From a bacterium (GTDB lineage: Bacteria; Patescibacteriota; Minisyncoccia; UBA6257; WO2-44-18), in the NCBI GenBank assembly GCA_030646995.1, contig JAUSKF010000002.1, positions 76,092-140,091 of the forward strand: a DNA stretch of 64,000 nt, in the 5' to 3' direction. A model generated the notes under the pieces. That model searched no databases, was not told the DNA's origin, and saw nothing but the letters and a program-made list of their open reading frames with translations. This document shows positions 23,541 to 64,000 of the stretch, in pieces. Numbering within the stretch: position 1 is the stretch's first letter; each line of letters opens with the position of its first letter. Both the position numbers and the translations under genes were made by a program.

Positions 23541-23566
23541 CCCCCTCATTGAGGGGGTTTTTGTTG
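23541..23566 (+). terminator. rho-independent terminator
   Basis: CCCCCTC-ATT-GAGGGGG + TTTTTGTT. Confidence 0.7.
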
Positions 23567-23629
23567 CCAAAGCTATTTTTTTCTGGTAAAATAACTCCGG
23601 TTACTTTTACAAGAAAAGAGGAGGCTAGA

Positions 23630-24910
23630 ATGAACCGCGCAGTAATCGTGGACGGAGTACGAACTCCTTTTATGAAGGCGGGCTCGCTGACGAGTCTGCG
23701 GGCAACTACTCTGGGATGCGACGTAATCGAACATTTGCATCTGAATCTTCATGGGTTCCGGCTCGAGGACATTGATTTGGTAATTGGCGCCAACGTCGGC
23801 AACCAAGTTCTCCCCCCCGACGGTTCTAATCTGACCCGCCTGATTGCCTTAAAAGCAGGGATTCCAATAAAAGTTCCGGCTTTTACGGTAAATATCAATT
23901 GCGCTAGCGGCCTTCATGCCATTTTGACAGCGGTGAAAGAGGTGGAGCTGGGTCTGGCGAATTGCGTATTGGTGGTAGCGGTAGAAGTAATGTCGGATTA
24001 CACCGCCGCCTACAGCCGTAAACAGCGGCAGAAATTCGCTAATCTCCTGACAGCATCGAGAAGTAAATCGCTTTTGAAAAAGCTTTCATCCACCGCTTCA
24101 GCGCTTGTGAAAGTAAAGATTATGAAGCATGACCCGCAGTGGATGATTAAACTCGGTTTGACCGATCCGTCCTGTAATTTGAGTATGGATAAGGTTTCCG
24201 ACAAGATTGCCGAGAAATACAAAATTTCCCGAGAAGAGCTGGATCTCTATGCTCTGGAGTCTCACCGAAGAGCAAATAATGCATCAGATCGTTTGCGCGG
24301 AGAAATGTGTTCATTCACCCTGAATGGAAAAAAAGAGCTGCCGTGGTTCTATGATGACGGCGTTCGGCCAAATCAGACTTTGGCGGCACTCGCGAAATTG
24401 AAACCGCTGAATGAAGGCGGGGTCACGACCGCAGGAAATTCCTCCCAGATCACTGACGGCGCCGTGGCATTCCTAATCGCCAACAAAGAATGGGCAGCAG
24501 CAAGAAAGCTTCCTGTGCTAGCCGCGATGAGTTCTAAAAATTCTGCGGCCTGCGGCTGTGAACCCTCGATGATGGGTCTCGGGCCGGTCGGCGCTATCTC
24601 TAAGTTGAGGGCGCAGGGTTGGACCAAGATGAGTGATTTCTCTGTTGTGGAGACCAATGAAGCTTTCGCTTCTGTGGTGCTCGCTCAGTCGAAGATGCTC
24701 AAAGAGATTGGAATGGGTCCGCTTGATTGGGATCGCACCAACGTAAATGGCGGCGCGATCGCTATCGGCCATCCGATCTCCGCAAGTGGTGCCAGACTGG
24801 TGTTGACCTGCGCGAAAGAACTTCAGCGACGCAATCAGCAATATGGCCTCGTGACACTTTGTGTCGGTGGCGGCCAGGGTGTCGCGGCAGTGATTGAAAA
24901 CAATGAGTAG
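23630..24910 (+). CDS. fadA: acetyl-CoA C-acyltransferase / 3-ketoacyl-CoA thiolase (FadA-type)
   Basis: Thiolase N-terminus VIVDGVRTPF, active-site region NINCASGL, C-terminal NVNGGAIAIGHP and CVGGGQG; GAGGAGG RBS. Confidence 0.8.
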   Translation: MNRAVIVDGVRTPFMKAGSLTSLRATTLGCDVIEHLHLNLHGFRLEDIDLVIGANVGNQVLPPDGSNLTRLIALKAGIPIKVPAFTVNINCASGLHAILTAVKEVELGLANCVLVVAVEVMSDYTAAYSRKQRQKFANLLTASRSKSLLKKLSSTASALVKVKIMKHDPQWMIKLGLTDPSCNLSMDKVSDKIAEKYKISREELDLYALESHRRANNASDRLRGEMCSFTLNGKKELPWFYDDGVRPNQTLAALAKLKPLNEGGVTTAGNSSQITDGAVAFLIANKEWAAARKLPVLAAMSSKNSAACGCEPSMMGLGPVGAISKLRAQGWTKMSDFSVVETNEAFASVVLAQSKMLKEIGMGPLDWDRTNVNGGAIAIGHPISASGARLVLTCAKELQRRNQQYGLVTLCVGGGQGVAAVIENNE

Positions 24911-24916
24911 CCCCAT

Positions 24917-24951
24917 CCCCGTGTTCAACGCGTTGAACACGGGGATTTTTT
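24917..24951 (+). terminator. rho-independent terminator, member of the CAACGCGTTG hairpin family
   Basis: CCCCGTGTTCAACGCGTTGAACACGGGG perfect 28-nt palindrome + TTTTTT. Confidence 0.75.
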
Positions 24952-24953
24952 AT

Positions 24954-24989
24954 ATAACACTTATGTCCTGGTCAGGATATAAGTGTTAT
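24954..24989. promoter_or_regulatory. 36-bp near-perfect palindrome (candidate operator) between fadA terminator and fadB start
   Basis: ATAACACTTAT-GTCCTGGTCAGGAT-ATAAGTGTTAT, nested inner palindrome TCCTG..CAGGA. Confidence 0.4.
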
Positions 24990-25064
24990 ATTTTCATTCT
25001 TGATTTTTCGTTGAGTTCCTGTTATTTTAAGTTCGGTTCGTTCACAAACGAAAGGGAGAAAATA

Positions 25065-27080
25065 ATGAGTAAGTTCTGGAAATGTTCGACCGACGAAGAA
25101 GGAAATATGGTTGCCGAGCTTGATCTCGGACCGGATGAAAAGCAAAACCTTTTGCGGGCGGAAGTTCTGAAGGAATTGAACGTCATTTTGTCTACGAACA
25201 ACCCGAAGTGTCTGATTATCACGACTGCCAAGCCGCACAGTTTCTGCGCGGGCGCGGATGTCGGAGAAATCAACGCTTTGGCGAACGGGAAACAGGAACA
25301 TCTGGTAGCAGCTCTCGAGAGTATGCATGCGCTTCTGCTGAAGATTCGCAATTCCTCTTATCCAATCGTGGCCGCGACTTCCGGAGAATGTCTGGGGGGC
25401 GGAACCGAACTAGTACTCGCCTGCCACAAGCGCATTGCCGCAAGACACCCTAAGACGCGCTTCGGCTTGCCTGAAGTGATGCTGGGAGTGATTCCCGGTT
25501 TCGGTGGAACACAGCTGTTGCCAAAGTTGGTCGGAGTCCGGAAAGCAATGGAAGTGATTGTTGGCCAGAGGAAGCTCTCGGCTGATGATGCTCTCAAATG
25601 CGGATTAGTGGACAAAGTTGTGATTCCGGAACTGCTAATCGTGGAGGCAAAAAAAATTGCGTTTGAAGAAACGGAACGTAAGAAACTTTCGTGGGTAGAC
25701 AGAATCGGCGCCGTTCGTGATTTCGTGATGAGAATGGCAAAAAAGCAGACTCTGAAAGCCACGAAAGGTGTCTACCCTGCTCCGATGAAAGCCATCGAAG
25801 CAATCGATTTCAGCGACGCCAATCTGGAAGACGGTTTGGCCCGTGAAGGCCAACTCTTCCTCGAATGCGCCGCGACGATGGAGTCCGCCAGCTTGCGGGA
25901 TATTTTTCTGAAACAGCGCGAGGCAAAATCCAAAGATTGGATTGGTGTCAATCCGCCATCCGCCCATTCTGGCGGAGGCGGAACTCCTCCGGAAAAAGTA
26001 CTTATGCTCGGTGCCGGCGTAATGGGACGCGCAATCGCTTACGCCGTTCTGGCGGGAGGCGTGAGGGTGAACCTGCACGATATGAGTTCAAAAGCGATTC
26101 ACGAAGCGGTATTGTTCATCGAAGGACAGCTCGCTAAAGAAGTCAAAAAGAGCAAGCTCTCGCTTGAGAAAGCGCAGGGCATGCGCGATCGGCTGATTGT
26201 CAGCTACGGCGATGAGCCGACGATCGATGGCGTGGATTTCGTGATTGAGGCGATCGTGGAAGATCTGACCATCAAGCCGCGGGTTCTAGCCGAGCTGGAA
26301 AAGAAACTTCCGGAGAATGCGGTCATCGCCACCAACACTTCTTCGCTCCTGCCGAGCGATATTGCCGCTCCCCTGACTCGCAAAGACAAGTTCTGCGCGA
26401 TGCACTTCTTCAACCCGGCCCACAAAATGGACCTGGTAGAGATCGTTGGCACGGCGGAAACTTCCAAAGAAACTCTGGCAAAAACGCTGGCGCTCATCAA
26501 AGCGATGGGTAAGACCCCGATCCTTTTGGATAAGGAATGCGCCGGCTTGCTGGTGAATCGAGTACTGGTGCGTGGAATGGCTAAGGCGCTTGATTGTCTA
26601 TTGTCGGGAGAAGATCCTTGGGAAATAGACATGGCGCTCGAAGGGGCCGGAATGGTTATGGGTCCGTTCAAAACCATCGACCTCGTCGGCTTCGACATTG
26701 CCTACCACGTGATGAAGATGATGGGCCACTACTATCCGGAGATTTACGGGAAAACAGAAGTCGGCAATCTGGAGCTGCACAAGTTTAAGGACATACTCGG
26801 TCAGAAAACCGGTAAAGGTTTCTATGTCTGGGAGAACAACAAAGCCGTAAAGCCCAACAAGGAAATTTTGAAGAAGTTCGGCTGGGAGTTGTTCCCACAT
26901 GACAAAGAAATCGGAGCATTGGACTGCTGTCATTTGATCCGCAAAGAAATGAACGAAGAAGCGATGGCGCTCGTTAGCGAACGCATCTGCTCCGATCCGA
27001 ATATGATTGACCTCTCGCTGGTACTGGGTGCCGGACTCTTCCCGAACCGGCGCGGACTGCTGAAAAATCCGATCATCTAA
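25065..27080 (+). CDS. fadB: multifunctional fatty-acid oxidation protein (enoyl-CoA hydratase + 3-hydroxyacyl-CoA dehydrogenase, FadB/FadJ-like)
   Basis: N-terminal crotonase fold, then GAGVMGRAIA Rossmann NAD site, 3HCDH C-terminal domain; AAAGGGAG RBS. Confidence 0.8.
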   Translation: MSKFWKCSTDEEGNMVAELDLGPDEKQNLLRAEVLKELNVILSTNNPKCLIITTAKPHSFCAGADVGEINALANGKQEHLVAALESMHALLLKIRNSSYPIVAATSGECLGGGTELVLACHKRIAARHPKTRFGLPEVMLGVIPGFGGTQLLPKLVGVRKAMEVIVGQRKLSADDALKCGLVDKVVIPELLIVEAKKIAFEETERKKLSWVDRIGAVRDFVMRMAKKQTLKATKGVYPAPMKAIEAIDFSDANLEDGLAREGQLFLECAATMESASLRDIFLKQREAKSKDWIGVNPPSAHSGGGGTPPEKVLMLGAGVMGRAIAYAVLAGGVRVNLHDMSSKAIHEAVLFIEGQLAKEVKKSKLSLEKAQGMRDRLIVSYGDEPTIDGVDFVIEAIVEDLTIKPRVLAELEKKLPENAVIATNTSSLLPSDIAAPLTRKDKFCAMHFFNPAHKMDLVEIVGTAETSKETLAKTLALIKAMGKTPILLDKECAGLLVNRVLVRGMAKALDCLLSGEDPWEIDMALEGAGMVMGPFKTIDLVGFDIAYHVMKMMGHYYPEIYGKTEVGNLELHKFKDILGQKTGKGFYVWENNKAVKPNKEILKKFGWELFPHDKEIGALDCCHLIRKEMNEEAMALVSERICSDPNMIDLSLVLGAGLFPNRRGLLKNPII

Positions 27081-27089
27081 TAACCTCAA

Positions 27090-27116
27090 GCCCCCTTTTC
27101 AAAGGGGGTTTTTTGT
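27090..27116 (+). terminator. rho-independent terminator
   Basis: CCCCCTT-TTCAA-AGGGGG + TTTTTTGTTTT. Confidence 0.7.
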
Positions 27117-27153
27117 TTTAAAATAGCTTCGGTTCCTTAATAAGGAGAAAGAC

Positions 27154-29139
27154 ATGGACGTTGCCAAGTCTTTGGGAGCGGGAGTGGCGATTGCAGAAGC
27201 AAGTCGCGACAAAGAAAAGCTGGCCAGTCTGATGCCGGATATTTTCCGGGGAAAGTTGGATGTCAGTTATTTCGAAGATCTTCCGAAAGACACTTTGTGC
27301 GATTTGAAGTTCCAGGCGAACTATCGAAAACTCGAGGAATTTTTGAAAACGGAAGTCGATCCGAATGAGATCGAGAAAACCAATGAAGTTCCGAAAGGGG
27401 TCTTGGATTGGCTTTGTGAAAATGGCTACTTCGCTCTGAAGTTGCCGGAAAAGTATGGCGGTATGAATCTGTTGCAGTCCCAGTATATGGCGCTGCTTCA
27501 GCTGACTGCCACGCGTTGCGGAGCGCTCGTTGCTTTGCTTTCTGCCTCCAACACCATCGGTGTCGGTTGGCCGATCATGGCTTTCGGCTCTCCGGAACAG
27601 CAGGATACCTGGCTTCCATTGGTTGCTAAGTCCCCTTCCGGATTCGCCTTCACTGAAGAAAAGGCCGGTTCCGATCCTTCCAGTATGGAAACCCATGCTG
27701 TGCGGGTTCGCGAAAACGGTAAGGTGGCCGGTTACCAGATTAGCGGTCGCAAGTGGTGGACCACTAACGGCCCGGCCAGCGACAATTCCTATCTTTCCAA
27801 GGTGATCATTGTGATCGCCAAGATCGTGGATTATCCGGATCAGCTTTCCGATTTGGAATACAAAAAGAATCCCGTTTTCGGAGCTTTTATTGTTCCGACT
27901 GGTTCTCCGGGAGTAAAGGTTGTTCAGAGATGTGAGTTCCTCGGTTTGAGGGGCATCTACAACGGCATCACGGACTTCGAAAAAGTCTACATTCCGCTCG
28001 AACAGCTGATCGGGAAGAAGACCGATTCCAGCGGAAAAACCGAATACTATCAGGAAGGTTCCGGTTTCCGGATCGCTTTGCAGGCGCTCAACAGCGGCCG
28101 AATCACGGTCTCCGGTTGTTGCTCTGCAACTGCCAAGATCGCTCTGCAAGTCGAGCGTTGGTGGGGTCTTACCCGCCATCAGTGGGGAAAGCAGATCGGC
28201 CAGCATGAACTTGTTGGCACCGGAAAGCTTGCCGAAGGCGTCGCGAAAGCTTTTACGATGGAAGCGATGACCTGGTTTGCCGCCGGTCGCGCTGATAAGC
28301 ATCTGGATTGCCGGATGGAGGCCGCGACTGCCAAAGTCTTCAATTCCGAACAACTCTGGCAGATCGTTGATGATCTGGCGCAGATCCGTGGTGGACGAGC
28401 CTACGAAACTCCGGAATCTCTGAAGAAGCGAGGCGAAGCGCCGATCCCAGTTGAAAGAATGATCCGCGATGCTCGGCCGAATCGAATCTTCGAAGGCGAA
28501 TCCTCGATCCTTGGACTGTTCGTAGTTCGTGAAGGAGTTGAGGAATACAAGGCGCAGGGTGAAATCTTCTTTGAAAAAGGCCGGTACGGAAAGAAAATGA
28601 AGGCCGCTGTTGGCTTCGCGAAAGAACTCGCTAAGCTTTCTATCCCGAACTTTAAAATGCGTTCACAAATCAAAAAGTTCTCGAAGGATTGGCCTCAGCT
28701 TGCGAAGCACCTACTTCACGCAGATAAGTGCGCGCGGAAGCTGGCAAAAGCGATCATTATCATTTCCGGTAAGTACCAGGCCAAGCTGATGCATAAGCAG
28801 CTGACCCTTACCCGGTTCTTCAATATCGCCACCGAGATCTACGCGATGGCCGCTGTTTGCGGATACGTGATCAAGGAGTGGCCGGTCCACGCAAAGGCTG
28901 ATCTGGCTGACTTCTATTGCCAGGGAGCCCGCCGTAGGATCGAAAAAGAATTCGCCGCCTTGTCGGACAACAGTGATGCGCTCGGTCGCAAAATTGCCAA
29001 TCTCACTCTAATGAATGGCTACGAAGATTTCCTTACGGACGGCACCATTCCGATGGTTGAGATGCTGGATCTGAAAGATCCCCAGCCTCCGAACCTCATG
29101 CCGCTGCCGCACTCACGCCGTGTTGATCGTAAAGCCTAA
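27154..29139 (+). CDS. long-form acyl-CoA dehydrogenase
   Basis: ACAD N-, middle and C-terminal domain motifs (GYFALKLPEKYGG, FAFTEEKAGSDPSSMET, WWTTNGP, QIRGGRAYE), ~250-aa extra C-terminal domain. Confidence 0.75.
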   Translation: MDVAKSLGAGVAIAEASRDKEKLASLMPDIFRGKLDVSYFEDLPKDTLCDLKFQANYRKLEEFLKTEVDPNEIEKTNEVPKGVLDWLCENGYFALKLPEKYGGMNLLQSQYMALLQLTATRCGALVALLSASNTIGVGWPIMAFGSPEQQDTWLPLVAKSPSGFAFTEEKAGSDPSSMETHAVRVRENGKVAGYQISGRKWWTTNGPASDNSYLSKVIIVIAKIVDYPDQLSDLEYKKNPVFGAFIVPTGSPGVKVVQRCEFLGLRGIYNGITDFEKVYIPLEQLIGKKTDSSGKTEYYQEGSGFRIALQALNSGRITVSGCCSATAKIALQVERWWGLTRHQWGKQIGQHELVGTGKLAEGVAKAFTMEAMTWFAAGRADKHLDCRMEAATAKVFNSEQLWQIVDDLAQIRGGRAYETPESLKKRGEAPIPVERMIRDARPNRIFEGESSILGLFVVREGVEEYKAQGEIFFEKGRYGKKMKAAVGFAKELAKLSIPNFKMRSQIKKFSKDWPQLAKHLLHADKCARKLAKAIIIISGKYQAKLMHKQLTLTRFFNIATEIYAMAAVCGYVIKEWPVHAKADLADFYCQGARRRIEKEFAALSDNSDALGRKIANLTLMNGYEDFLTDGTIPMVEMLDLKDPQPPNLMPLPHSRRVDRKA

Positions 29140-29592: not shown

Positions 29593-31416
29593 ATGAGGTA
29601 CTTATCTACTCTGGTCCGGATCATCCTACTCTCCTTCATAGTTTTCTTAGCCGGAGTCTTAATGGTCAAAAGCTCCCTTGGAGACTCTCCTATTAGCCAA
29701 GAACCCGCCAATTTAGCCGCCGGCTATGGCTATATAAGACTTCTGGACTATCGACTTGGTGTGGAGCAACCGCCACTCGGCAAGGCTTTATCTGCGGTGC
29801 CACTTTTATTTCAAAAATTAACCTTCCCAATCGCCAGCTTGAACTGGCAACGAGATATTAATAGCTCGCAAGCCGTCGGCCGGCAATTTCTGTACGAATC
29901 AGGAAATAGCCCGAGTCAGATGATTAACGCCAGAAGAATCGTGCCGATTATTTTTACTTTATTATTAATCCTCGCAATTTATTGGACATCTAAAGAATTA
30001 ATCGGAAAATGGTGGGCGCTTTTGCCCGCTTTTCTTTTTGCCTTTTTCCCAACCGCGCTGGCCTACGGGCACTATGCCACCACTTCAGCCGCCTCCACTC
30101 TAGCAATCTTTGGAGCGGTAATAAGTTTTCTGTGGTTCCTCAATCAACCCTCCAAGCGAAAAATGCTCTGGGCGGCCGTCGCTTTCGGATTAGCTCAACT
30201 AACCACCTTCGCGGCTTTAATTCTTATTCCCTATTTTCTGATAATTTTGACAATTTTCTATCTGGCAAGCGTAACACGAGATTACCGGATGACTGACCCG
30301 CGCGAGCGCTTGCGACGCTTTGGCTTGCGGGCCTTTCGTTATTTTCGGTCACTGATGGTTATTTTCACAATTGGTTTCTTGTTGGTTTTTAGCATTTATT
30401 TGCTTTTCACTTTGAGCTACCCGCTTGAGAAACAGCAATCCGACACCACTTTCATCCTCGATCAATTCCAACCGCAATGGCTGGGCGACTTCGTAACACA
30501 AATTTCCGGCACGCCCGTCTTGCGGGCTGCCGCGCATTATCTTTTGGGAATTACATTGAATTGGCCGGTAGAATCCAACTCTGCAGAAGGGTCGCTCTTG
30601 ATAAGCGCGGGCCTCAAAACCCCAATCGCTTTGCTATTGCTGATACTCATCTCCTTAGTATTTTCTCTGATGAACATTGGCAAAGCCCTTTGGAGCATGC
30701 TCCGCCGCCGCACAAAGAACTTTTCTGATTATTTAAATACCGACTTCACTGAATTCGCGATGTTAATTTTCACTGGAACCTACTGGGCCGGTAGCCTAGC
30801 ACTGGGCGCGACAGGGTTAGAAAAAATACTACCCACACTCCCCTTCTTGTTCATCTTAATCAGCAACGGAATCAGAAAGTGGTCTGCCGGCACAGAGCTC
30901 GCCAATGCCCGCAATTTGGTAATCAAAATATTTCTAGTATACGAAGAATTTCTCCAACTTTCTTTAAAATCCGCAGCTTTGATAATTCTGGTAGTCGCCT
31001 ATTTCATAACTCCTCTGATTACCTATCCTCATTTTCTATCATTCTCTAATTTGCTGGCCGGCGGCACAAAAAACGGCCATCGACACCTCACCGATTCAGA
31101 TTATGACCTCGGCCAAGATTTAATCCGCCTTAAAACTTGGACTGTGGCTAACCTACCCGAATTTGATAAAATTGCCGTGGACTATTCCGGCGGCGGGGAT
31201 ATAAAAATCATAGCGCTAGCCGAAGAGTGGGAGTCCGCAAAAGGCGACCCGATTAATGATGGAATCCGCTGGCTTGCAATCTCCGCAACTACGCTCGCCA
31301 ACGCAAAAAAATCTGCCAATGCCGAAGATCAATATATCTGGCTAACCGCGTCCGCCAGCTGGCGGATTTACGCCCGCGCCGGAACTTCGATATTTATTTA
31401 TAAACTGGTGGAGTAA
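29593..31416 (+). CDS. large polytopic membrane protein, possibly GT-C-fold (PMT/ArnT-like) glycosyltransferase
   Basis: 607 aa, >10 predicted TM helices; family assignment by architecture only. Confidence 0.4.
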   Translation: MRYLSTLVRIILLSFIVFLAGVLMVKSSLGDSPISQEPANLAAGYGYIRLLDYRLGVEQPPLGKALSAVPLLFQKLTFPIASLNWQRDINSSQAVGRQFLYESGNSPSQMINARRIVPIIFTLLLILAIYWTSKELIGKWWALLPAFLFAFFPTALAYGHYATTSAASTLAIFGAVISFLWFLNQPSKRKMLWAAVAFGLAQLTTFAALILIPYFLIILTIFYLASVTRDYRMTDPRERLRRFGLRAFRYFRSLMVIFTIGFLLVFSIYLLFTLSYPLEKQQSDTTFILDQFQPQWLGDFVTQISGTPVLRAAAHYLLGITLNWPVESNSAEGSLLISAGLKTPIALLLLILISLVFSLMNIGKALWSMLRRRTKNFSDYLNTDFTEFAMLIFTGTYWAGSLALGATGLEKILPTLPFLFILISNGIRKWSAGTELANARNLVIKIFLVYEEFLQLSLKSAALIILVVAYFITPLITYPHFLSFSNLLAGGTKNGHRHLTDSDYDLGQDLIRLKTWTVANLPEFDKIAVDYSGGGDIKIIALAEEWESAKGDPINDGIRWLAISATTLANAKKSANAEDQYIWLTASASWRIYARAGTSIFIYKLVE

Positions 31417-37883: not shown

Positions 37884-37945
37884 ACTATTTAAACATTTAA
37901 ATATTTAAATATCAAGCAAAAATTTAAATATCAAGAATTTAAATC
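37884..37945. repeat. cluster of ATTTAAATATTTAAA-type motifs upstream of greA
   Basis: TATTTAAACATTTAAATATTTAAATATCAAG...AATTTAAATATCAAGAATTTAAATC. Confidence 0.6.
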
Positions 37946-38665
37946 ATAAGACTTCCTCCAGAGCCACCAGCGAACTTTCACCGCCTCAAAAAGCACCTGG
38001 AAATACGAGTACCATCGGACATGGGAGCGGGCGTCATTCACCCAATGCACCGGCATTTCACGAATCTGATAGCCAAGTGACCGAGCTAAAGCCAGAGCCT
38101 CCACGTCGGACCCCCAGCGATTCAGCCGGGCCAAAGAAAAAATCTTCTTACTCGCCTCTTCAGAAAAACATTTAAACCCACACTGACTGTCCCAAATACC
38201 CCGCAACAACAAAATCTGCACAAATAAATTACCCAACTTACCGGCGAGTTGCTTTAAAATATTCTGCGGCGGATTGAGCTTCGAGCCCTTCACTGCGCGC
38301 GAACCGATTACTACTTCATAGCCCTCATCAAGAGATGGAATCATTTTATTGAACTCGACGATTGAGGTGGAATTGTCGGCGTCCATAAATACCCGCCAGT
38401 TGCCTTTTGCAGCCAACATCCCCTCCCGTACCGCCGCTCCTTTCCCTTTATTTTCTTTCAGCCTGATTATTTTTAAATTTTCTATCAACGGCTTAAACCG
38501 CTCCGTAATCTCTGCGGTGGCATCAGTGGAGCCATCGTCAATCACCAGAATTTCATAGGAATACTCCTGCTCAGAAAGATGCCGGTCAACGTCAATCAAC
38601 GTCAAAGGAAGCCTTTTGGCTTCGTTGTAAGCGGGAATAATAACGGACAGATATGGTTTTGCCAC
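37931..38665 (-). CDS. family 2 glycosyltransferase (polyprenol-phosphate sugar synthase-like, DPM1/ArnC type)
   Basis: SVIIPAYNE...VIDDGSTD...FMDADN DxD region. Confidence 0.7.
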   Translation of the reverse strand: MAKPYLSVIIPAYNEAKRLPLTLIDVDRHLSEQEYSYEILVIDDGSTDATAEITERFKPLIENLKIIRLKENKGKGAAVREGMLAAKGNWRVFMDADNSTSIVEFNKMIPSLDEGYEVVIGSRAVKGSKLNPPQNILKQLAGKLGNLFVQILLLRGIWDSQCGFKCFSEEASKKIFSLARLNRWGSDVEALALARSLGYQIREMPVHWVNDARSHVRWYSYFQVLFEAVKVRWWLWRKSYDLNS

Positions 38666-56663: not shown

Positions 56664-58238
56664 TTACTTCGGATTCTGATCGTCCTTCTTTTCCTGTTTT
56701 TGGTTCTTCACCATCCACTTCATCAGGTTGCCCATCATTCCTTCGTTATCGCCGCTCCCACCCCAGAAAGTGCCCTCGTTGGAAGGCATCCAGACGAAGG
56801 TGGTATTAGCCGCGATGGCCTTCGCGAACTCATAGCGAGCCAGCGATTCACCGCCTCCGAAAGCCTCGGTCATCACCTTGGTGCCGTCAGCGTCCGCCTT
56901 CTTCTTGAGGAAGATGACGTCCGCTTCAGCCGTGCCTCGGGCAACCGTGTTTTCGGCTTCCTTCTTGGCGGTCTGAAGATCAATTTCCGCCACCGCCAGC
57001 TTTTGCTTCGCCTGCGTCTCGGCAACCATCTTTGCCGTCTCGGCCTCGATCTGCTTCTTACGCTGATCGATCTTGGTCTCCTCTTCCATCCGCGCCGCGT
57101 CCGCTTTCGCCTTCTCCATCTGCTCCTTCGAGCGGAGGGTTTCCTGACGAGCGACCTCGGCTTCCCGGACCGGCTTGCGTAGTTCTTCCGGAACCTCGAT
57201 TTTCCGCACAAGGCAACGCAGAATTTCAATACCCTTCTCCACGCACACCCTCTTCATCTCTGCCAGGAAGGCGTGTTCAAACTTCTCACGACCGATGCCC
57301 TGGATGAATTCCTTGGCGCCATACTTCGATCCCTCGACTCGAGAGATCGAGCGGGTGTTCTGCACGATCACCTTACGATCCAGCGCCGCGATGTCGCCCT
57401 GATCCTGAAAAACCTTGGCGATCAGATGCTCGTTCACCTGCCACTCGACGGCCACGTCGAATTCGATCGTGAATCCGTCGTTGGAGGGGAACTCGATTGC
57501 ATCGTTAGCAGGGCCGGTCCCGTCGCTGTGAAACTCGGTCACCTGCGTCTGGGTACTCATTTGTGTGACCTGATACATGTAGGGGTTCATGAAGTAGGTG
57601 CCCGAACCGAGCACTTTTCCCTGAACACCTTTCTGTCCCTCGGTGGCCAGCTCCTGATCTTCTGGCGTTTTCTCACCAGACTTGGCAGTCACCACGCCCA
57701 CGAAGCCGGCGGGAATCTTGATCGAGTCCACCTTCTCCAGCTTGTACATCGTCGGATGGACACGATACCTGCCGGGGCCAAGCACCTGGGCCAACGGGCC
57801 CTGATAGTCGCTTTCCGGCAGACCGAATTCATTGGCCTTCTTTACCGGGGCCACGACCATTCCATTGGGCATCGTAGCTCCGAAACGCTGGTGCAAGACG
57901 CCGATCTGTCCTTCCGAGATCTCTTCCATCTTCACCGCTTCGGCTCTCCGACCCCAACGGAAGTAAAGAGTAAAGCCCTGTGAATGGATCTCTTGGGTCG
58001 GGCCGCGCTGGCCCGCCTGAGCCAGGTTCTGGCCCGCCGGCAAGCTCTCTCCGAACCGATTTACGAAGTAGTAGAACTCATCCTGATCGGGAAGGAGCCA
58101 GCCGACCGGACTCGCGACCACGAGGATCAGGAGCAGGCCAAGCAGGGTTCCACCGAAAACAGCAAGCTTCTTCTGCAATGAGGTCACTGCAATCTCCTTG
58201 AAAAGAACGGCTTCTGCGCGATTAACCCATCGCGCCAT
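56664..58238 (-). CDS. SPFH/band-7 (flotillin/YqiK-like) membrane protein with long coiled-coil C-terminus
   Basis: N-terminal TM, SPFH core, Ala/Glu/Lys-rich coiled coil; start set at MARWVNR. GC-rich alternative-frame ORFs inside are judged spurious. Confidence 0.75.
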   Translation of the reverse strand: MARWVNRAEAVLFKEIAVTSLQKKLAVFGGTLLGLLLILVVASPVGWLLPDQDEFYYFVNRFGESLPAGQNLAQAGQRGPTQEIHSQGFTLYFRWGRRAEAVKMEEISEGQIGVLHQRFGATMPNGMVVAPVKKANEFGLPESDYQGPLAQVLGPGRYRVHPTMYKLEKVDSIKIPAGFVGVVTAKSGEKTPEDQELATEGQKGVQGKVLGSGTYFMNPYMYQVTQMSTQTQVTEFHSDGTGPANDAIEFPSNDGFTIEFDVAVEWQVNEHLIAKVFQDQGDIAALDRKVIVQNTRSISRVEGSKYGAKEFIQGIGREKFEHAFLAEMKRVCVEKGIEILRCLVRKIEVPEELRKPVREAEVARQETLRSKEQMEKAKADAARMEEETKIDQRKKQIEAETAKMVAETQAKQKLAVAEIDLQTAKKEAENTVARGTAEADVIFLKKKADADGTKVMTEAFGGGESLARYEFAKAIAANTTFVWMPSNEGTFWGGSGDNEGMMGNLMKWMVKNQKQEKKDDQNPK

Positions 58239-58242
58239 CGGG

Positions 58243-58262
58243 TTGTCCCGCAAACGGGACAA
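58243..58262. promoter_or_regulatory. perfect palindrome TTGTCCCG-CAAA-CGGGACAA 4 nt upstream of the SPFH start codon
   Basis: Seen directly. Confidence 0.4.
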
Positions 58263-58298
58263 TGGCAATAAAGTAGCAAGAAATCTTATTAAAGTCAA

Positions 58299-58439
58299 GG
58301 GCTCCGGCCAATAGCCCCTCGGAAACGGCATAATTTGCTTCCAGCGAGCAAATTTGCCTCTCCCTCGCTTCGCCACTTTAGATAAGACCAAGCTGGCGAA
58401 GCTCCGGCATGTTCCTCGAAGCTATTGGCCTGCGCTTTG
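58299..58439 (+). repeat. 141-bp full-length member of the structured repeat family, in the divergent SPFH / membrane-protein promoter region
   Basis: Shares both ~50-bp arms with 21179-21327. Central hairpin differs in sequence but keeps pairing. End pairing GGCCAATAGC/GCTATTGGCC covaries with GGGAATAG/CTATTCCC of the other copies. Confidence 0.7.
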
Positions 58440-58458
58440 TTATAATTAAGCGATACCG

Positions 58459-59994
58459 ATGAAAAAAATTAGCGCCGCTTTGTTAATTTTAGGAGCTTTA
58501 GCGGTTTTTTGGCATTTTGTATCGCCGAACATACCCGATCTGGATAGTTTTTTTTATCTCGGAAAGGCCTTATTGATGCGAGAGCAGGGTTTGGCGGAAG
58601 CAACCTTCCCATGGGCCCAGCTGTCGGTCATTAAAGAAACTTCATCTTCCTTATGGTTCGGCTTCAGCTTATTGATGCTCCCCTTTTCTTTTTTGCCGTC
58701 ACCCTCTCTGGCGATTAAAATATTCGGAATCTTGGTCACCCTTTTCGCCTTGGGGTCGTGCTATTTCGTGGCGCGGCGGCATCAATTCCACTGGCCGATC
58801 TTTTGGCCGCTCCTGATGTTTTTTTCCGCGCCTAATGTCACGGCGCAGCTCCTGATGGTCCGCCCGCAAACTCTGACAGTCGGCCTCGGTTTGCTTTTGC
58901 TGTCGTTTCTGATCCGTGGCGGCTGGATGCCGGTCTTTATAGTTTCCTTTTTCATCTCTTGGATTCATTTAAATTTTTCCTGGATAGCCATCGCTATTTT
59001 GGGCATAGTAATAGTTGGCCGAATAATTATTGATAGAAAAGTAGAATGGCTGAAAATCATCGCGGTACCCGCGGCTTTATTGCTTGGCTGGGTAGCCCGC
59101 CCGAATCCGATCGGCGCCGCAAAACTTTTTTATATCCAGGTAGTCCAACAAATATTAGAGAAGCAAAGTGGGCTTCCCCTTCTTTTTGGCACCGAAAACC
59201 TTCCCCTTGGTTCAGCGACGCTCTTCCGTAACTTTTCGCCATTCCTGGCCATCTGGATATTCGCCGGTCTAATGCTCGCTTGGTGGATAATCAAAAAACA
59301 GCTAGTGGATAAACAAAAAATTCTGATTGCCTCGTCGTCAGTCTTCTTGTCATTGGTGTTTTTCTCGTTAAGCATCCTGATAGCGCGCCGGAGTTATAAT
59401 TTCTGGATTGCATTTGGAGTTCTGGCCATCGCCCTAGCCTTCAGTTGGATATTAGATTTAGCCAGGCAACGTTATGATTTAAAACCCCTAAAAGACTGGG
59501 CAGCCGGAATTGCTGTCTTCTCTTTAATATTTCTGACCTTCTTCTCCGGGTTAAAAACTCTGAATAGTCTGGCGAAAAGCTACCCGCCGGACCTAATGAA
59601 AGAATCTGCGGAATGGCTGGCAAAAAATTCCCAACCCGGAGATTTAGTGTTCAATCTGCATTGGAGCCATTTTTCTCCTTTATTTCTCTGGAATCGCTCT
59701 AATTATTACATCGGGGGGCTGGATCCAATTTTCCAATACCGCTACAACCCCGAACTTTACTGGCTTTTCCACTATCCGTCAGCCGGCATAAGCACCTCCG
59801 TGACCTGCCGATACCTAGAATGCACCAATGACTCAGTAGAAAGCACCTATTCTGCTCTGAAAAACGACTTTCGCGCGAAATATATTCTGGTCAGCAAGCC
59901 GCACAATCCAAACTTCAATAAATTCGCGGCCTCCGACCCAAGATTTGAAAAGGTGTTTGAGGCTGTCAATGAAGTCGTTTATCTAATAAAATGA
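58459..59994 (+). CDS. large polytopic membrane protein, paralog A (candidate GT-C-fold glycosyltransferase)
   Basis: ~10 TM + C-terminal soluble domain; D-x-D-S-F-F/Y motif in first extracytoplasmic loop (IPDLDSFFY); paralog of 60014-61579. Confidence 0.5.
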   Translation: MKKISAALLILGALAVFWHFVSPNIPDLDSFFYLGKALLMREQGLAEATFPWAQLSVIKETSSSLWFGFSLLMLPFSFLPSPSLAIKIFGILVTLFALGSCYFVARRHQFHWPIFWPLLMFFSAPNVTAQLLMVRPQTLTVGLGLLLLSFLIRGGWMPVFIVSFFISWIHLNFSWIAIAILGIVIVGRIIIDRKVEWLKIIAVPAALLLGWVARPNPIGAAKLFYIQVVQQILEKQSGLPLLFGTENLPLGSATLFRNFSPFLAIWIFAGLMLAWWIIKKQLVDKQKILIASSSVFLSLVFFSLSILIARRSYNFWIAFGVLAIALAFSWILDLARQRYDLKPLKDWAAGIAVFSLIFLTFFSGLKTLNSLAKSYPPDLMKESAEWLAKNSQPGDLVFNLHWSHFSPLFLWNRSNYYIGGLDPIFQYRYNPELYWLFHYPSAGISTSVTCRYLECTNDSVESTYSALKNDFRAKYILVSKPHNPNFNKFAASDPRFEKVFEAVNEVVYLIK

Positions 59995-60013
59995 GAGCAT
60001 AGACACCGCTGAT

Positions 60014-61579
60014 ATGTCGCCCGAATTCAAAAAAATAATTTATTGGCTCTTGCCCCTGGTCTTAATAGTCAGCTTCGCTTTTTTTATTCACGGAAGACTG
60101 GTTAATTTCTCCGATGCGGACAGTTTTTATCACATCCGTCATTCCTGGGTCTACCGCACGACGGGACTGTTTAATACTTCTTTTCCCTGGGTGCAATATT
60201 CGGTAATCAATCAGTACGCCGCGGATATTTGGTACGGCTTCCATATGCTGATTCTACCCTTCACTTATTTCCAAAATCTGACGGATGGAATCAACTGGGG
60301 AGCTTTGTTTGTGACCACGATTGCCGCCTCGCTTTTCTTTTTATCGCTTCTTAAGCTAAAAATACGCTGGCCCCTGCTCTGGCTGGGTGTATTTTTATTT
60401 GCCTCTGCGGATCTTCTGTATCGGATAACTATGCTCCGTCCCCATCCCCTCTCCCTTGGATTAAGTATGCTGCTGTTTGCCTATCTCTCCACAAAAGAAA
60501 CCAGCCGGTCCCGCTGGGTGATTTTCTTTCTTGCCGCCGGCCTATCTTGGCTCCATCTTTCTTTGAGCTGGATGGGCCTGCTGATAGTCGGAGTAGTTTC
60601 TATGATTGAATTCATACAACAACGAAAAATATCCATCTGGAAATATCTTACCGTGATTCTGGGACTACTGACTGGTCTGATTCTGCGACCAAATCCGATA
60701 GGTGCCACCAAGCTGGCCTATATTCAGGTGGTAAAATTGCTCTTTGAAAAACAAGGCGATGCACCTCTCCGATTTGGACGCGAGCTTACTCCGTTTGTAT
60801 GGGAAAATTTTGCCGACCAGCTTGTGCCCATCGCTATCCTAATCTTGATCGCCGTCGGATTCGTTATTTGGCTAATCGCGACTAAAAAATGGCGGGCTGT
60901 CCCTATTGATTTCCGCTCCCCGATCATCTCCAGCCTCGCGTTGGAAATAATTTTTTTCCTGCTGACTTTCGGGGTGGCTCGCCGCTCCAATGAAATTTTC
61001 ATCGGTTTCGCGGTTTTGTTTGTGGGATTGACCTTCTCGCAAGTAAAAATTTGGATATCAAAATATGAATGGCAGCACTACGCGCTCGGCATCGCGATTT
61101 TTATCGCCCTGATCTATATGCCATTTAAAACAATGTACCGCTTTGACACTTACATGGCCGGCACTTTCCCAGTTGACCGCTTCAAAGAAGTGACGGACTG
61201 GCTGAAAGCAAACACGCAGCCGGAAGAAATAGTTTTCAACATCCACTGGGACCGCTTTGCTCAACTGTTCTATCACGACCAGCATAATTATTTCATTAAT
61301 GGCATGGATCCGATTTTTGAATATGCGTATGACCCGAGTTTATATTGGAAAACGCATTTCCTTGCGATTGATGCCGCTACTTCACATACTTGTGGCAAGG
61401 TGCGTTGCACAGCGGAAGAAGTGGAACCGATCGCTCAAGTCTTGAAAAAAGACTTCAAAGCGTCGTATATTCTAGTAGAAAAGCAACGTAGCCCAAAATT
61501 ATCCGCATATCTGAACAGCGCTCCGGAATTTAATAAGGTTCTGGACACCGACCAAGACGCCCTCTATAAAATATTGTGA
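60014..61579 (+). CDS. large polytopic membrane protein, paralog B (candidate GT-C-fold glycosyltransferase)
   Basis: Same architecture; SDADSFYH loop motif; conserved C-terminal block NIHWDRF...GMDPIFEYAYDPSLYW matches paralog A. Confidence 0.5.
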   Translation: MSPEFKKIIYWLLPLVLIVSFAFFIHGRLVNFSDADSFYHIRHSWVYRTTGLFNTSFPWVQYSVINQYAADIWYGFHMLILPFTYFQNLTDGINWGALFVTTIAASLFFLSLLKLKIRWPLLWLGVFLFASADLLYRITMLRPHPLSLGLSMLLFAYLSTKETSRSRWVIFFLAAGLSWLHLSLSWMGLLIVGVVSMIEFIQQRKISIWKYLTVILGLLTGLILRPNPIGATKLAYIQVVKLLFEKQGDAPLRFGRELTPFVWENFADQLVPIAILILIAVGFVIWLIATKKWRAVPIDFRSPIISSLALEIIFFLLTFGVARRSNEIFIGFAVLFVGLTFSQVKIWISKYEWQHYALGIAIFIALIYMPFKTMYRFDTYMAGTFPVDRFKEVTDWLKANTQPEEIVFNIHWDRFAQLFYHDQHNYFINGMDPIFEYAYDPSLYWKTHFLAIDAATSHTCGKVRCTAEEVEPIAQVLKKDFKASYILVEKQRSPKLSAYLNSAPEFNKVLDTDQDALYKIL

Positions 61580-62280
61580 ATAAAGAAATGAAATTTTCCG
61601 TAATCATCCCCGCCTACAACGAAAAGGACACGCTTCCGGTTATTTTAGAGCGCGTCCAGAAGCAGAAACCAACTGAAATAATTATTGTTGATGATGCCTC
61701 CACCGATGGCACGGAGGAATTCCTGAAGACTTATCAGGCTAAAAACGTAAAAATTATCCGCCATCAACAAAACTCCGGCAAAGGAGCGGCGGTACACACG
61801 GGCATCAAAAATGCCACACAGGAAGTAATTTTGATACAGGATGCTGATTTGGAATACGACCCGGAAGAATACGAGAAATTACTCAACCCGATTGAAAGCG
61901 GGCTGGCAGATGTAGTTTATGGCTCACGCTTCATCGGCTCTTCTCCGCACCGCGTAATGCTTTTCTGGCATTTCACCGGAAATAGATTCTTAACCCTACT
62001 CTGCAATATCGCCGCCAACTTGAATCTCACCGATATGGAAACGGGCTTTAAAGCTTTCCGAAAAAAAGCTCTGGACTCCATAACTCTTGAAGAAACTGAT
62101 TTCGGATTTGAGCCGGAAGTCACGATTAAACTGGCGAAAAGGGGCTGGAAATTCTATGAAGTAGGAATTTCCTATCACGGCCGGGATTACGATCAAGGGA
62201 AAAAGATCCGTTGGACTGATGGCCTAAAGGCGATTGGTATCATTTTAAAACACTGGCTCAATCCCAGCGCTCAAAAATAA
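61576..62280 (+). CDS. family 2 glycosyltransferase, polyprenol-phosphate hexosyltransferase type (DPM1/GtrB/ArnC-like)
   Basis: SVIIPAYNE, IIVDDASTDGT, QDADLEYDPEE (DxD) motifs; overlaps previous gene by 4 nt. Confidence 0.75.
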   Translation: MNKEMKFSVIIPAYNEKDTLPVILERVQKQKPTEIIIVDDASTDGTEEFLKTYQAKNVKIIRHQQNSGKGAAVHTGIKNATQEVILIQDADLEYDPEEYEKLLNPIESGLADVVYGSRFIGSSPHRVMLFWHFTGNRFLTLLCNIAANLNLTDMETGFKAFRKKALDSITLEETDFGFEPEVTIKLAKRGWKFYEVGISYHGRDYDQGKKIRWTDGLKAIGIILKHWLNPSAQK

Positions 62281-62283
62281 CAA

Positions 62284-62318
62284 ACAAAAATCCCGCGACA
62301 CAAACGCGGGATTTTTGA
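62284..62318. terminator. bidirectional terminator between GT2 and pilin genes
   Basis: ATCCCGCG-ACACAAA-CGCGGGAT + TTTTT. Confidence 0.65.
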
Positions 62319-62335
62319 TTGCTATCGCTACCGAA

Positions 62336-62794
62336 CTAGCGGGAAACGGAAAGTGAAGTGGAGGCTTGTCCGGAAATTGTTTCTCCGTATTTTCCTTCCA
62401 CAGTAACTCGCCCAGCGTTATTCGCGATATCGTAATTAGTATCGTAATCGGTGCCACTAGTGAATGAACCGGCCGAAGGATCAAATGGCAAGCTGGTCAT
62501 ATAGGTAGGCACGAGACACTCATAGATGTCATATCCGCCGGTAGACTGCATCGTAGTAGTCGCAGTCGGAAGCGCAGCGCAATCGCCGGAGGTCTCCCAA
62601 ACACCGCGGTTATCAGCCAAGCGCTGGCCAACCGCGTTCAAGATGGCGTTGATGTTGGCGGAGCGTTGAGTGTTCCGAGCCTGGGCAAATTGCCGAGCCG
62701 GGTTCAAAGCTACGATAACTACTCCAGCCAAGATCGCGATAATGCCGATAACAACCAACAATTCGATCAAAGTAAAACCTTTTTTGTTTTTCAT
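62336..62794 (-). CDS. type IV pilin (prepilin with N-terminal cleavage/methylation motif)
   Basis: MKNKKGFTLIELLVVIGIIAILAG class III signal peptide; C-terminal Cys pair; start set at internal Met. Confidence 0.7.
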   Translation of the reverse strand: MKNKKGFTLIELLVVIGIIAILAGVVIVALNPARQFAQARNTQRSANINAILNAVGQRLADNRGVWETSGDCAALPTATTTMQSTGGYDIYECLVPTYMTSLPFDPSAGSFTSGTDYDTNYDIANNAGRVTVEGKYGETISGQASTSLSVSR

Positions 62795-62851
62795 AGTAAA
62801 TAATGTAATTTTCACGACCTTTCTTGATACACAATCACTTCAATTATTATA

Positions 62852-63253
62852 TCAAAGAGTAGGTAATTCTTCGAGGGAGACTGTGGATAAGCTAGTAGAA
62901 TTGACGGTTAGCTTCAAATTCGTAGTTGCTCCGTTGATGATAGCCTTGGCTTGAATTATTTTATTAGGCGCCGAAGTGGTAATTGCAGACAGCGTGCAGG
63001 CCCTGGAAGAGATCATCAAAGTTTCATTTCCGGTATAAGAAGATGAATCTGCCAACTTTAATAGCGCTTCGTTAAGGCAGGATCGGGCAATAAAATAACT
63101 CAACTGCTTATTGCCGAAATCAGCAACATTGAGCCGTGTAAATAGACTGGAAGACCCGAGTGATATTGCCACTACCATAAGCACCAGGGAAAGAACGATT
63201 GAGGACATTATTGCGATATACCCACCTCTGGGATTTTTTCTATTCATAATCAT
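62852..63253 (-). CDS. pilin-like / minor pseudopilin candidate
   Basis: Basic N-terminus then hydrophobic helix (GGYIAIMSSIVLSLVLMVVAISL), Ser/Thr-rich; degenerate prepilin motif. Confidence 0.35.
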   Translation of the reverse strand: MIMNRKNPRGGYIAIMSSIVLSLVLMVVAISLGSSSLFTRLNVADFGNKQLSYFIARSCLNEALLKLADSSSYTGNETLMISSRACTLSAITTSAPNKIIQAKAIINGATTNLKLTVNSTSLSTVSLEELPTL

Positions 63254-63771
63254 TTAGTGAGTATTACCGTGTTTAAATCAATTGAAGTGGAAGCAAAGGC
63301 GTTATACATCGTCCCGCTAATCTGGATTGCCGGGCGACCCGAGAAATCATAATTATGGAACTCCAGATTCTGAACCACAACATATTCATTAGTGATTGGA
63401 TTGGCTGCGTTACTTCCCAATTTTAATGTGACAACTCCATTGTTCACTGCCACTATCACCGGATTATTGACGTAGCTAAGTTTATTTACCGACAAGCTGG
63501 TGGTTGTAGCCCCGGTGGATGGGGAATTAATCGCGGACAAGTTCTGAAGAACCCAGTAGATTTTCTGTTCAAAAAATTTTTTATTCTCCGCCACCTCTTT
63601 GTGATGTCGTATTGTATCGGCAGAATCAATTAACTGATAGGAAGCGAAAATCGAAAAAGTAATCATGCCCGTTACGATAGCGGCATAAATTAAAATTTCT
63701 ATTAGCGTGAAAGCTTGCTCGCCTATGGAGAGCCGCTTATTGCCCCGCTGTGATAATTCTAAGCGCATCAT
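63250..63771 (-). CDS. prepilin-type N-terminal cleavage/methylation domain protein (minor pilin)
   Basis: GEQAFTLIEILIYAAIV motif; start at internal Met uncertain. Confidence 0.55.
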   Translation of the reverse strand: MMRLELSQRGNKRLSIGEQAFTLIEILIYAAIVTGMITFSIFASYQLIDSADTIRHHKEVAENKKFFEQKIYWVLQNLSAINSPSTGATTTSLSVNKLSYVNNPVIVAVNNGVVTLKLGSNAANPITNEYVVVQNLEFHNYDFSGRPAIQISGTMYNAFASTSIDLNTVILTK

Positions 63772-63994
63772 TGCTTCGCACAGACATAAATACCATATTA
63801 TCAGCATAATCGATTCCCGTGCCGACCTGCGGGAAATTCAAAGAGGCATATTCGGTCATGGCGTCGGGGTTAGCCACGTTAACCACAAGAAATTCTTTGC
63901 CGGTGTTCGTAGTAGATAGAAAAGCCAAATCTCCAGTCGCACACACGATATCATTCACCTCTCCGCCAACGTTTAACCGGTCGCGGACATACAT
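63737..63994 (-). CDS. hypothetical protein, N-terminal part outside the window
   Basis: ORF running off the window edge; overlaps the upstream gene start region. Confidence 0.3.
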   Translation of the reverse strand: MYVRDRLNVGGEVNDIVCATGDLAFLSTTNTGKEFLVVNVANPDAMTEYASLNFPQVGTGIDYADNMVFMSVRSNDALRIITAGQ

Positions 63995-64000
63995 CTGAGT

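Follow-up and report, generated by a model that had tools for sequence, protein, structure and literature searches.

In the three-component scheme of extracytoplasmic glycosylation, a polyprenyl-phosphate sugar synthase works together with an outward-facing glycosyltransferase of the GT-C fold that uses a single-sugar donor (PMC11127046, PMC11194591). GtrA/GtrB/GtrC, ArnC/ArnT, CsbB/YfhO, GacI/GacL and PpgS/Rv3779 are alike in combining a glycosyltransferase family 2 (GT2) synthase with an outward GT-C. Other GT-C enzymes act on proteins. DPY19 and the PMT/TMTC enzymes move a single mannose from DPM1-made dolichyl or polyprenyl phosphate donors onto polypeptide, TfpW acts on the group IV pili of Pseudomonas aeruginosa, and archaeal AglB, which stands with STT3 and PglB in family GT66, glycosylates type IV pilins and archaellins. 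Here, we describe a locus in a stretch of 64,000 nucleotides from a patescibacterium of the WO2-44-18 lineage (GCA_030646995.1, contig JAUSKF010000002.1, forward-strand positions 76,092 to 140,091), called the window in what follows. Near the end of the window, three successive genes encode two large paralogous membrane proteins, MP1 and MP2, and a GT2 enzyme, and they adjoin three genes of a type IV pilus operon, PIL1 to PIL3. MP1 and MP2 are predicted, from a structural model, to be GT-C-fold glycosyltransferases, and they constitute a new, sequence-orphan GT-C family inside the known scheme of GT2 plus GT-C extracytoplasmic glycosylation. It is very probable that the module is a GT2/GT-C pathway working through a lipid-linked sugar. 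Tentatively, MP1-MP2-GT2 can be read as a single transcription unit for a two-step extracytoplasmic glycosylation pathway, with pilins as the leading candidates for the acceptor.

The GT2 of the module matches PF00535 with an E-value (E) of 1.4e-40. Its best NCBIfam matches are all polyprenyl-phosphate glycosyltransferases, namely AglJ (E 4.7e-38), the haloarchaeal dolichyl-phosphate hexose transferase (1.5e-20), PpgS (6.7e-20) and ArnC-type proteins (1.2e-16), and it can be aligned with the Pyrococcus dolichyl-phosphate mannose synthase (PfDPMS, 5mlz; E 3.9e-21), including the DAD motif. With a GT-A catalytic domain, a DxD motif and these relatives, it resembles a polyprenyl-phosphate sugar synthase of the DPM1/GtrB/AglJ type, as had been proposed in an earlier note on this DNA. 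The scores lie far below the equivalog cut-offs (131 bits versus 325 for AglJ, and all others far below too), so that the sugar specificity is not assignable. A functional coupling of the GT2 to the GT-C is well supported by a conserved translational overlap and by two divergent gene fusions. In a neighbour-joining tree of 94 family members, which resolves an MP2-type and an MP1-type clade, a GT2 gene adjoins the membrane protein gene in 13/13 loci of the MP2-type clade, mostly with an overlap of 1-4 nt; the corresponding figure among the other family loci is 7/73. In the window, the gap between MP1 and MP2 amounts to 19 nt, and the overlap of MP2 and GT2 is indeed the 4 nt that had been indicated before. 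Furthermore, the two enzymes occur as natural fusions in P0101 (769 aa) and P0255 (768 aa), which begin with a cytoplasmic GT2 and continue with the first transmembrane helix (TM1) of the GT-C, and this order is exactly what a topology with the N-terminus inside requires. Between these fusions the identity is only 24%, and the GT2 domain of P0101 shares 44% identity with the GT2 of the window (E 2e-55). From these coupled and fused DPM1-type synthases we infer that the GT-C uses a sugar donor linked to a lipid phosphate.

Neither Pfam nor NCBIfam contains a model that matches MP1 or MP2, and nothing is retrieved from the PDB sequences, whether by a phmmer search with single sequences or with a profile of 56 sequences (E<=10). 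The fold assignment comes from an AlphaFold2 model of MP2, built from the 56-sequence alignment (predicted local distance difference test, pLDDT, 94.5; predicted template-modelling score, pTM, 0.92). When this model is compared with the PDB by Foldseek, the top 27 matches are all GT-C enzymes, which bears out the assignment of the earlier note. In descending order, they comprise yeast and human STT3 (E 7.9e-9, TM-score 0.67-0.70 on the query), the C-mannosyltransferase DPY19 (1.5e-7), PglB (2e-7), ALG9/ALG12 (about 5e-6), ArnT (2.6e-5), PMT enzymes (Pmt4, 1e-3) and, more weakly, EmbA/B/C and PimE.

Model helices and hydropathy together give MP2 11 transmembrane helices, one more than the approximate count of ten made before, with the N-terminus inside and the C-terminus outside. 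The cytoplasmic loops are short and basic (12 Lys or Arg in 41 residues), as against 10 such residues in 120 for the external loops, and of the 30 loop residues that are conserved at 90% or more, 29 are found on the predicted outer face. The outward conserved residues include D34, D36, P58-W59, W73, R142-P143, H181, R225-P226 and G255-x-E257, and R323-R324 lies at the outer end of TM10. D34 and D36 belong to an acidic motif that reads D34-A-D36-S-F-Y in MP2 and D27-L-D29-S-F-F in MP1. Both Asp residues are invariant in an alignment of 56 homologs, and MP1 as well as MP2 retains all 24 invariant residues of the family, including D27 and D29 of MP1. In MP2 they follow TM1 by 7-9 residues, in the first external loop, which the positive-inside rule and the pattern of conservation assign to the outside. 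The claim of a D-x-D-S-F motif after TM1 in both paralogs is therefore confirmed, and its predicted location is extracytoplasmic.

The soluble C-terminal domain that had been recognized previously takes shape in the model as an alpha/beta domain of 135 aa (residues 386-521 of MP2) outside the membrane, with a nearly invariant Cys pair (C460/C465). Modelled alone (pLDDT 94.6), it finds its best Foldseek match in AfAglB-S2 (3vu0; probability 0.98, TM-score 0.56, E 0.015), followed by the C-terminal domains of human and yeast STT3 (probability 0.90-0.97). As modelled, both the whole enzyme and this domain are closest to peptide-modifying GT-Cs (STT3/AglB/PglB and DPY19), and the acceptor is for this reason probably a protein, secreted or exposed at the surface.

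The tandem paralogy of MP1 and MP2, also part of the earlier description, is confirmed, with 35% identity over the full length (E 7e-102), far beyond chance. An exhaustive profile search assigns 3,096 clusters at 50% identity to the family, 1,158 of them at E<=1e-30, and several copies per genome are common. A protein identical to MP2, encoded on a 162-kb contig, has been recorded as hypothetical in the metagenome-assembled genome (MAG) of an unclassified bacterium, and the named relatives are all proteins from Patescibacteria/Parcubacteria MAGs, annotated as hypothetical. The N-terminal extensions of the long family members contain no Pfam domain. Pairwise identities within the MP2-type clade range from 44 to 82%. 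In the MP1-type clade, 15 of 16 genes form a tandem with a gene from another clade; the partner of the sixteenth is 2.1 kb away. MP2-type genes can stand alone, whereas MP1-type genes apparently never do, which suggests an obligate partner role. MP1 is thus probably an obligate partner of MP2, be it in a hetero-oligomer, for the addition of a second sugar or to serve a second site. Some members are located on long contigs (L082, L083) labelled Armatimonadota (1.29 Mb) and Acidobacteriota (411 kb), and another contig labelled Armatimonadota carries three MP-family genes in tandem (L063, 5682-10777). Unless these bins are mislabelled, the family may reach beyond Patescibacteria.

A sequence of events can be proposed on this basis. 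At the cytoplasmic face, the GT2 would transfer one sugar from a nucleotide sugar onto polyprenyl phosphate, by homology with DPM1, GtrB, AglJ, PpgS and ArnC. The lipid-linked sugar would then reach the outer face of the membrane, perhaps by means of a generic flippase or, in line with a proposal made for TfpW, of the GT-C. There, MP2, with MP1 as a partner or second-step enzyme, would use the lipid-linked sugar as donor. The DxD in external loop 1 and the outward Arg, His and Glu residues would make up the active site, and the acceptor might be held by the outward C-terminal domain.

Compared with the three-component systems, the module is distinguished by the lack of a GtrA-type gene and by the presence of two paralogous GT-Cs, which belong to an unnamed family; its acceptor, to judge from the fold neighbours, is more likely a protein than a polysaccharide. 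TfpW is similar in having a cytoplasmic N-terminus, 11 transmembrane helices, an essential acidic motif within loop 1 and, at the C-terminus, a large domain that faces outward, and its gene is situated, as here, at the 3' end of a major pilin gene. However, tfpW lies immediately downstream of pilA on the same strand, whereas here the genes converge on a 55-bp gap with a putative bidirectional terminator. The C-terminal domain of TfpW is a periplasmic TPR domain, whereas the 135-aa alpha/beta domain of the MP family, which may resemble that of the oligosaccharyltransferases (OSTs), has no TPR match. Moreover, TfpW depends on polyprenyl-phosphate D-arabinofuranose, which is formed by way of phosphoribosyl pyrophosphate, DPPR synthase, DprE1 and DprE2 and is subsequently polymerised, while the synthase encoded in the present operon is a DPM1-type GT2 and not a phosphoribosyltransferase. 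DPY19 is the second-best fold match, but the MP family has no sequence similarity to DPY19 or the PMT/TMTC enzymes, no MIR or TPR domains, and a C-terminal domain that may be OST-like instead.

On the other side of the terminator lies a type IV pilus operon. Its matches to PF07963 (N_methyl, E 7.3e-10) and TIGR02532 (E 6.2e-8) firmly identify PIL1 as a pilin. It carries a KKG/FTLIE signal (class III or N-methylation motif), two Cys residues and a Thr-rich loop between them, and it has orthologs in more than 40 pilus loci. The earlier note counted three genes with a prepilin motif. Besides PIL1, this holds weakly for PIL3, with an N_methyl match of E 0.04, an A/FTLIE site and a conserved operon position, but not for PIL2, which has a hydrophobic N-terminus without Glu5 and no match in Pfam or NCBIfam, but does belong to the conserved genes of the operon. 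A fourth gene of the operon, encoding an LVIVD beta-propeller, extends from position 63737 beyond the edge of the window, the frame being open up to base 64000. Its product may be a large tip protein or minor pilin, in view of an N-terminal, pilin-like GQSxxE motif. In orthologous loci, the PIL genes are accompanied by the LVIVD gene, a further pilin-like gene, T2SSF (PilC-like) and T2SSE (PilB-like), and from this gene order it follows that the genes in the window are the distal part of a type IV pilus operon, of which PIL1 is the last. The operon type T2SSE-T2SSF-pilin-LVIVD (~480 aa)-PIL3-PIL2-PIL1 occurs very widely in metagenomes of Parcubacteria and is stable there, as judged from 184 stretches confirmed by tblastn. 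The features of the locus are listed in the table below; a check of the open reading frames (ORFs) of the window returned exactly the coordinates that had been given before.

Features of the module, the adjoining pilus operon and other parts of the window (aa, amino acids; coordinates are those of the window)
Feature	Coordinates	Strand	Evidence or remark
MP1 (511 aa), membrane protein, predicted GT-C-fold paralog	58459-59994	+	ORF; MP1-type clade
MP2 (521 aa), membrane protein, predicted GT-C-fold paralog	60014-61579	+	ORF, AlphaFold2 model; MP2-type clade
GT2 (234 aa, GTG start), soluble or peripheral	61576-62280	+	PF00535
Terminator-like hairpin, bidirectional, intrinsic	62285-62317	.	stem with A-run and T-run
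PIL1 (159 aa), type IV pilin, last gene of the pilus operon	62336-62815	-	PF07963, TIGR02532
PIL2 (133 aa), putative minor pilin	62852-63253	-	conserved operon position between PIL3 and PIL1
PIL3 (185 aa), putative minor pilin with A/FTLIE site	63250-63807	-	weak N_methyl match, operon position
LVIVD beta-propeller gene (~480 aa), 3' end only, cut by the window edge	63737-64000	-	matches the C-terminal end of an LVIVD-protein alignment
TATAAT, perfect	58441-58446		13 nt 5' of the MP1 start codon
SPFH/Band-7 (flotillin-like) protein (575 aa)	56664-58391	-	directly upstream of MP1
Third large membrane protein	29593-31416	+	PF13231
Second GT2	37931-38665	-	PF00535
Beta-oxidation cluster	23549-29139	+	

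The case for pilins as acceptors is built on gene order. Of the 13 MP2-clade loci, 11 adjoin the same pilus operon, at its PIL1 end, while among the other members of the family pilus-like genes were found within 6 kb in 7 of 73 cases, at least one of which is a false positive. The far flank on the MP side shows at least six unrelated states across the MP2 clade, and the adjacency to the pilus operon has outlasted at least 5 rearrangements of this flank. In one group, the far flank consists of DnaX-DUF4015-ScpAB, that is, the genes that touch PIL1 in loci without the module, so that the module behaves as an insertion or deletion exactly between PIL1 and DnaX. Two other arrangements are known, one in which the module is directly divergent from T2SSE (L022) and one in which an MP1-type gene is located about 6.5 kb upstream of the pilus operon (L087). 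An apparent adjacency to an LVIVD gene at another locus (L067) proved to be a false lead, since it concerns an LVIVD plus GDSL-lipase protein outside any pilus operon. The pilins of the adjoining operon are the leading candidates, and it is possible, if still doubtful, that they are among the acceptors.

A considerable number of observations weigh against this reading. Seen from the pilus operon, with the LVIVD protein as anchor in 80 metagenome loci, 31 of which have enough downstream sequence, the module is found at the pilin end in only 4/31 cases and upstream in 1/31 (L087), and in 26/31 operons housekeeping genes occupy the pilin end instead. Synteny followed in this direction weakens the pilin reading. 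The counts of junction breaks (2 versus 5) do not differ significantly (binomial p = 0.23), and the Fisher p of 8e-8 ignores phylogeny; since the MP2 clade is monophyletic, all cases of adjacency could go back to a single insertion in an ancestor and have been inherited vertically from it. The convergent orientation, with 55 bp between the stop codons of GT2 and PIL1, and the terminator-like hairpin between them (a stem of 13 bp, 7 of them GC pairs, between an A-run and a T-run) indicate that module and pilus operon are transcribed separately. PIL1 proteins with and without the module are indistinguishable, having the same Ser/Thr content of about 18%, the same Cys pair and the same Thr-rich loop, and a reading of the mature PIL1 sequence of the window reveals no N-x-S/T sequon. 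The neighbours of the family as a whole are enriched for GT2 and PMT_2 only, not for pilins, and solitary members adjoin GT2 and PMT_2 genes, never pilins. Against the proposed pathway as a whole stands the result that no conserved small ORF with several transmembrane helices that might encode a GtrA-like flippase is present at the locus of the window or at the other MP2-clade loci. As for the C-terminal domain, its OST-like matches are weak (E 0.015-0.04, none reaching E<=1e-3), and sequence profiles detect no relation to OSTs. The link to pilins is thus a matter of gene order in one lineage. What had been proposed as a candidate pilin glycosylation locus parallel to the TfpW type keeps its GT-C and its donor synthase, but the pilin part of that description is called into question by convergent genes, a terminator, restriction to one clade and unchanged pilins.

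It could be imagined that the same GT2/GT-C chemistry serves a non-protein envelope glycopolymer or a lipid, and that the module has its place beside the pilus operon only through the chance of inheritance. Acceptors of this kind would be teichoic-acid-like polymers, cell-wall polysaccharides and lipoglycans, as exemplified by GtrABC, CsbB/YfhO, GacI/GacL, PpgS/Rv3779 and ArnC/ArnT. The presence of the module in only 5 of 31 pilus operons, the separation of the convergent units by a terminator, the sameness of the pilins and the non-significant break statistics would all be expected in that case, as would the multi-copy nature of the family, whose solitary members stand beside GT2 and PMT_2 genes, and the significant fold matches also include ALG9/12, ArnT and Emb. 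Nevertheless, the best fold matches, for the full length and for the C-terminal domain, are peptide-modifying enzymes, and the far flank has been rearranged at least five times without loss of the adjacency to the operon, which is seen again in two further arrangements. A non-protein acceptor seems rather unlikely on this balance.

A protein acceptor does not necessarily imply pilins. In a general O-glycosylation system, similar to the actinobacterial Ppm1/Pmt system, many surface or secreted proteins would be substrates and pilins would be one of them at most. The pairing of GT2 and GT-C and the outward active site fit the Ppm1/Pmt logic, several paralogs are present per genome, the MP1-type partner is reminiscent of Pmt1-Pmt2 heterodimers, and no sequence signature sets the pilins apart. 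However, the Pfam PMT and PMT_2 models match 0 of 56 members in a relaxed scan (E<=10), PMT structures (E 1e-3 or worse) are weaker fold matches than STT3 and DPY19, and hhalign gives a probability of 0.46% when the family profile is aligned with the PMT_2 protein that is encoded elsewhere in the window. The latter protein, which the earlier note rightly listed as a third large membrane protein, can be recognised as a GT-C of the PMT_2 type (PF13231, E 3.1e-7), and the genome is thus already provided with an enzyme of this type. General O-glycosylation by the module is accordingly unlikely.

The resemblance to OSTs is most pronounced at the level of the fold. STT3/AglB/PglB and the AglJ-AglB pathway provide the best whole-protein and C-terminal fold matches, a DxD in external loop 1 and, in AglJ, the nearest relative of the GT2. 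In contrast to GT66, the MP family has 11 instead of 13 transmembrane helices, no WWDYG motif in its C-terminal domain, no recognised DK/MI motif and no sequence homology; the PIL1 protein is without a sequon, and the donor presumably carries one sugar, linked to a lipid through a monophosphate. The WWDYG motif of OSTs presumably occupies a place equivalent to that of the invariant Trp in the H-W-D-R-F of the MP family, but a profile test of this register found nothing. In the family consensus x-H-W-D-R-F only W412 and F415 are invariant, D413 being replaced by Ser in MP1, and an hhalign comparison of the C-terminal profile with the C-terminal sequences of PglB and STT3, which had been verified via PDB alignments, resulted in probabilities of 0.2% and 0.15%. 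Kinship in the WWDYG register is therefore rejected at the sequence level, and the resemblance is kept as a fold-level lead only. The MP family resembles OSTs in fold, and it is not a member of GT66 at the sequence level and lacks the defining motif of the latter.

It is conceivable, but distinctly unlikely, that the family is a bacterial offshoot of the OST lineage, largely of Patescibacteria, in which an AglB/STT3-like core and a minimal C-terminal domain have been kept and the WWDYG motif has been lost. Such an enzyme would receive a monosaccharide on polyprenyl monophosphate from an AglJ-like, sometimes fused, GT2 and, working as an obligate pair of MP1 and MP2, would glycosylate type IV pilins at sites other than sequons. 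That the proteins are true N-oligosaccharyltransferases of GT66, which transfer a lipid-linked glycan to the Asn of N-x-S/T, is very improbable. The rank of STT3 and PglB among the fold matches, the match of the C-terminal domain to AfAglB-S2 and the proximity of the GT2 to AglJ of the archaeal N-glycosylation pathway would agree with it, but the WWDYG motif is missing, the Pfam STT3 model does not match, profile searches against PDB sequences and PglB/STT3 C-terminal sequences are empty, the mature PIL1 of the window offers no sequon and the operon has no genes for building an oligosaccharide. Finally, a Wzy/EpsG-like polymerase or ligase for diphosphate-linked repeat units is hardly to be expected, since the weak matches of the relaxed Pfam scan to EpsG (6/56 members, best E 1.8e-6) and DUF6057 (5/56) do not extend to EpsG in the proteins of the window, no Wzy, WaaL or SEDS structures occur among the fold matches, the obligate partner is a DPM1-like synthase of a monosaccharide-phosphate lipid that is even fused to the GT-C, and neither Wzx or Wzz nor an initiating phosphoglycosyltransferase was noted among the neighbouring genes.

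Some further features of the window can be mentioned. The TATAAT hexamer is situated 13 nt from the MP1 start codon, without an obvious Shine-Dalgarno sequence, which suggests a very short or leaderless 5' untranslated region for the MP1-MP2-GT2 transcript. The SPFH gene on the other flank of the module, the product of which has a long, coiled C-terminal half rich in Lys, Glu and Ala, is found in the 2-kb bin with the highest GC content of the window (0.545), and its position beside the module is not conserved in other genomes; a 575-aa gene 3' of GT2 at L022 is not an ortholog of it. The second GT2 that had been reported is present (PF00535, E 7.8e-30), shares only 29% identity with the GT2 of the module and has greA on one side and a 110-aa ORF and an M23 peptidase on the other, but no adjoining GT-C. 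A cluster of beta-oxidation genes codes for a thiolase, a fusion of enoyl-CoA hydratase and 3-hydroxyacyl-CoA dehydrogenase, and a 661-aa acyl-CoA dehydrogenase similar to ACAD9/VLCAD. It lies in a stretch of raised GC content (0.49-0.51, versus about 0.45 for the window) and, being unusual for a reduced patescibacterial genome, may be a horizontally acquired island.

Patescibacteria rely on type IV pili for motility and attachment to their hosts. Glycosylation of their pilins has so far been a matter of computational prediction only and has been called unexplored (PMC11623550). The locus described here is a concrete candidate, as it places a dedicated lipid-sugar synthase and a GT-C family that is invisible to Pfam and NCBIfam beside a major pilin gene. 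Whatever its acceptor, the unnamed family of about 3,100 clusters merits a family model and a CAZy-style classification. The combination of an STT3/AglB- and DPY19-like fold with a synthase for a monosaccharide donor on a monophosphate lipid bears on the diversification of protein-modifying GT-Cs. If the derivation from the OST lineage were true, the module would be machinery of a new class for the glycosylation of pilins, used by episymbiotic bacteria with host-contact pili.

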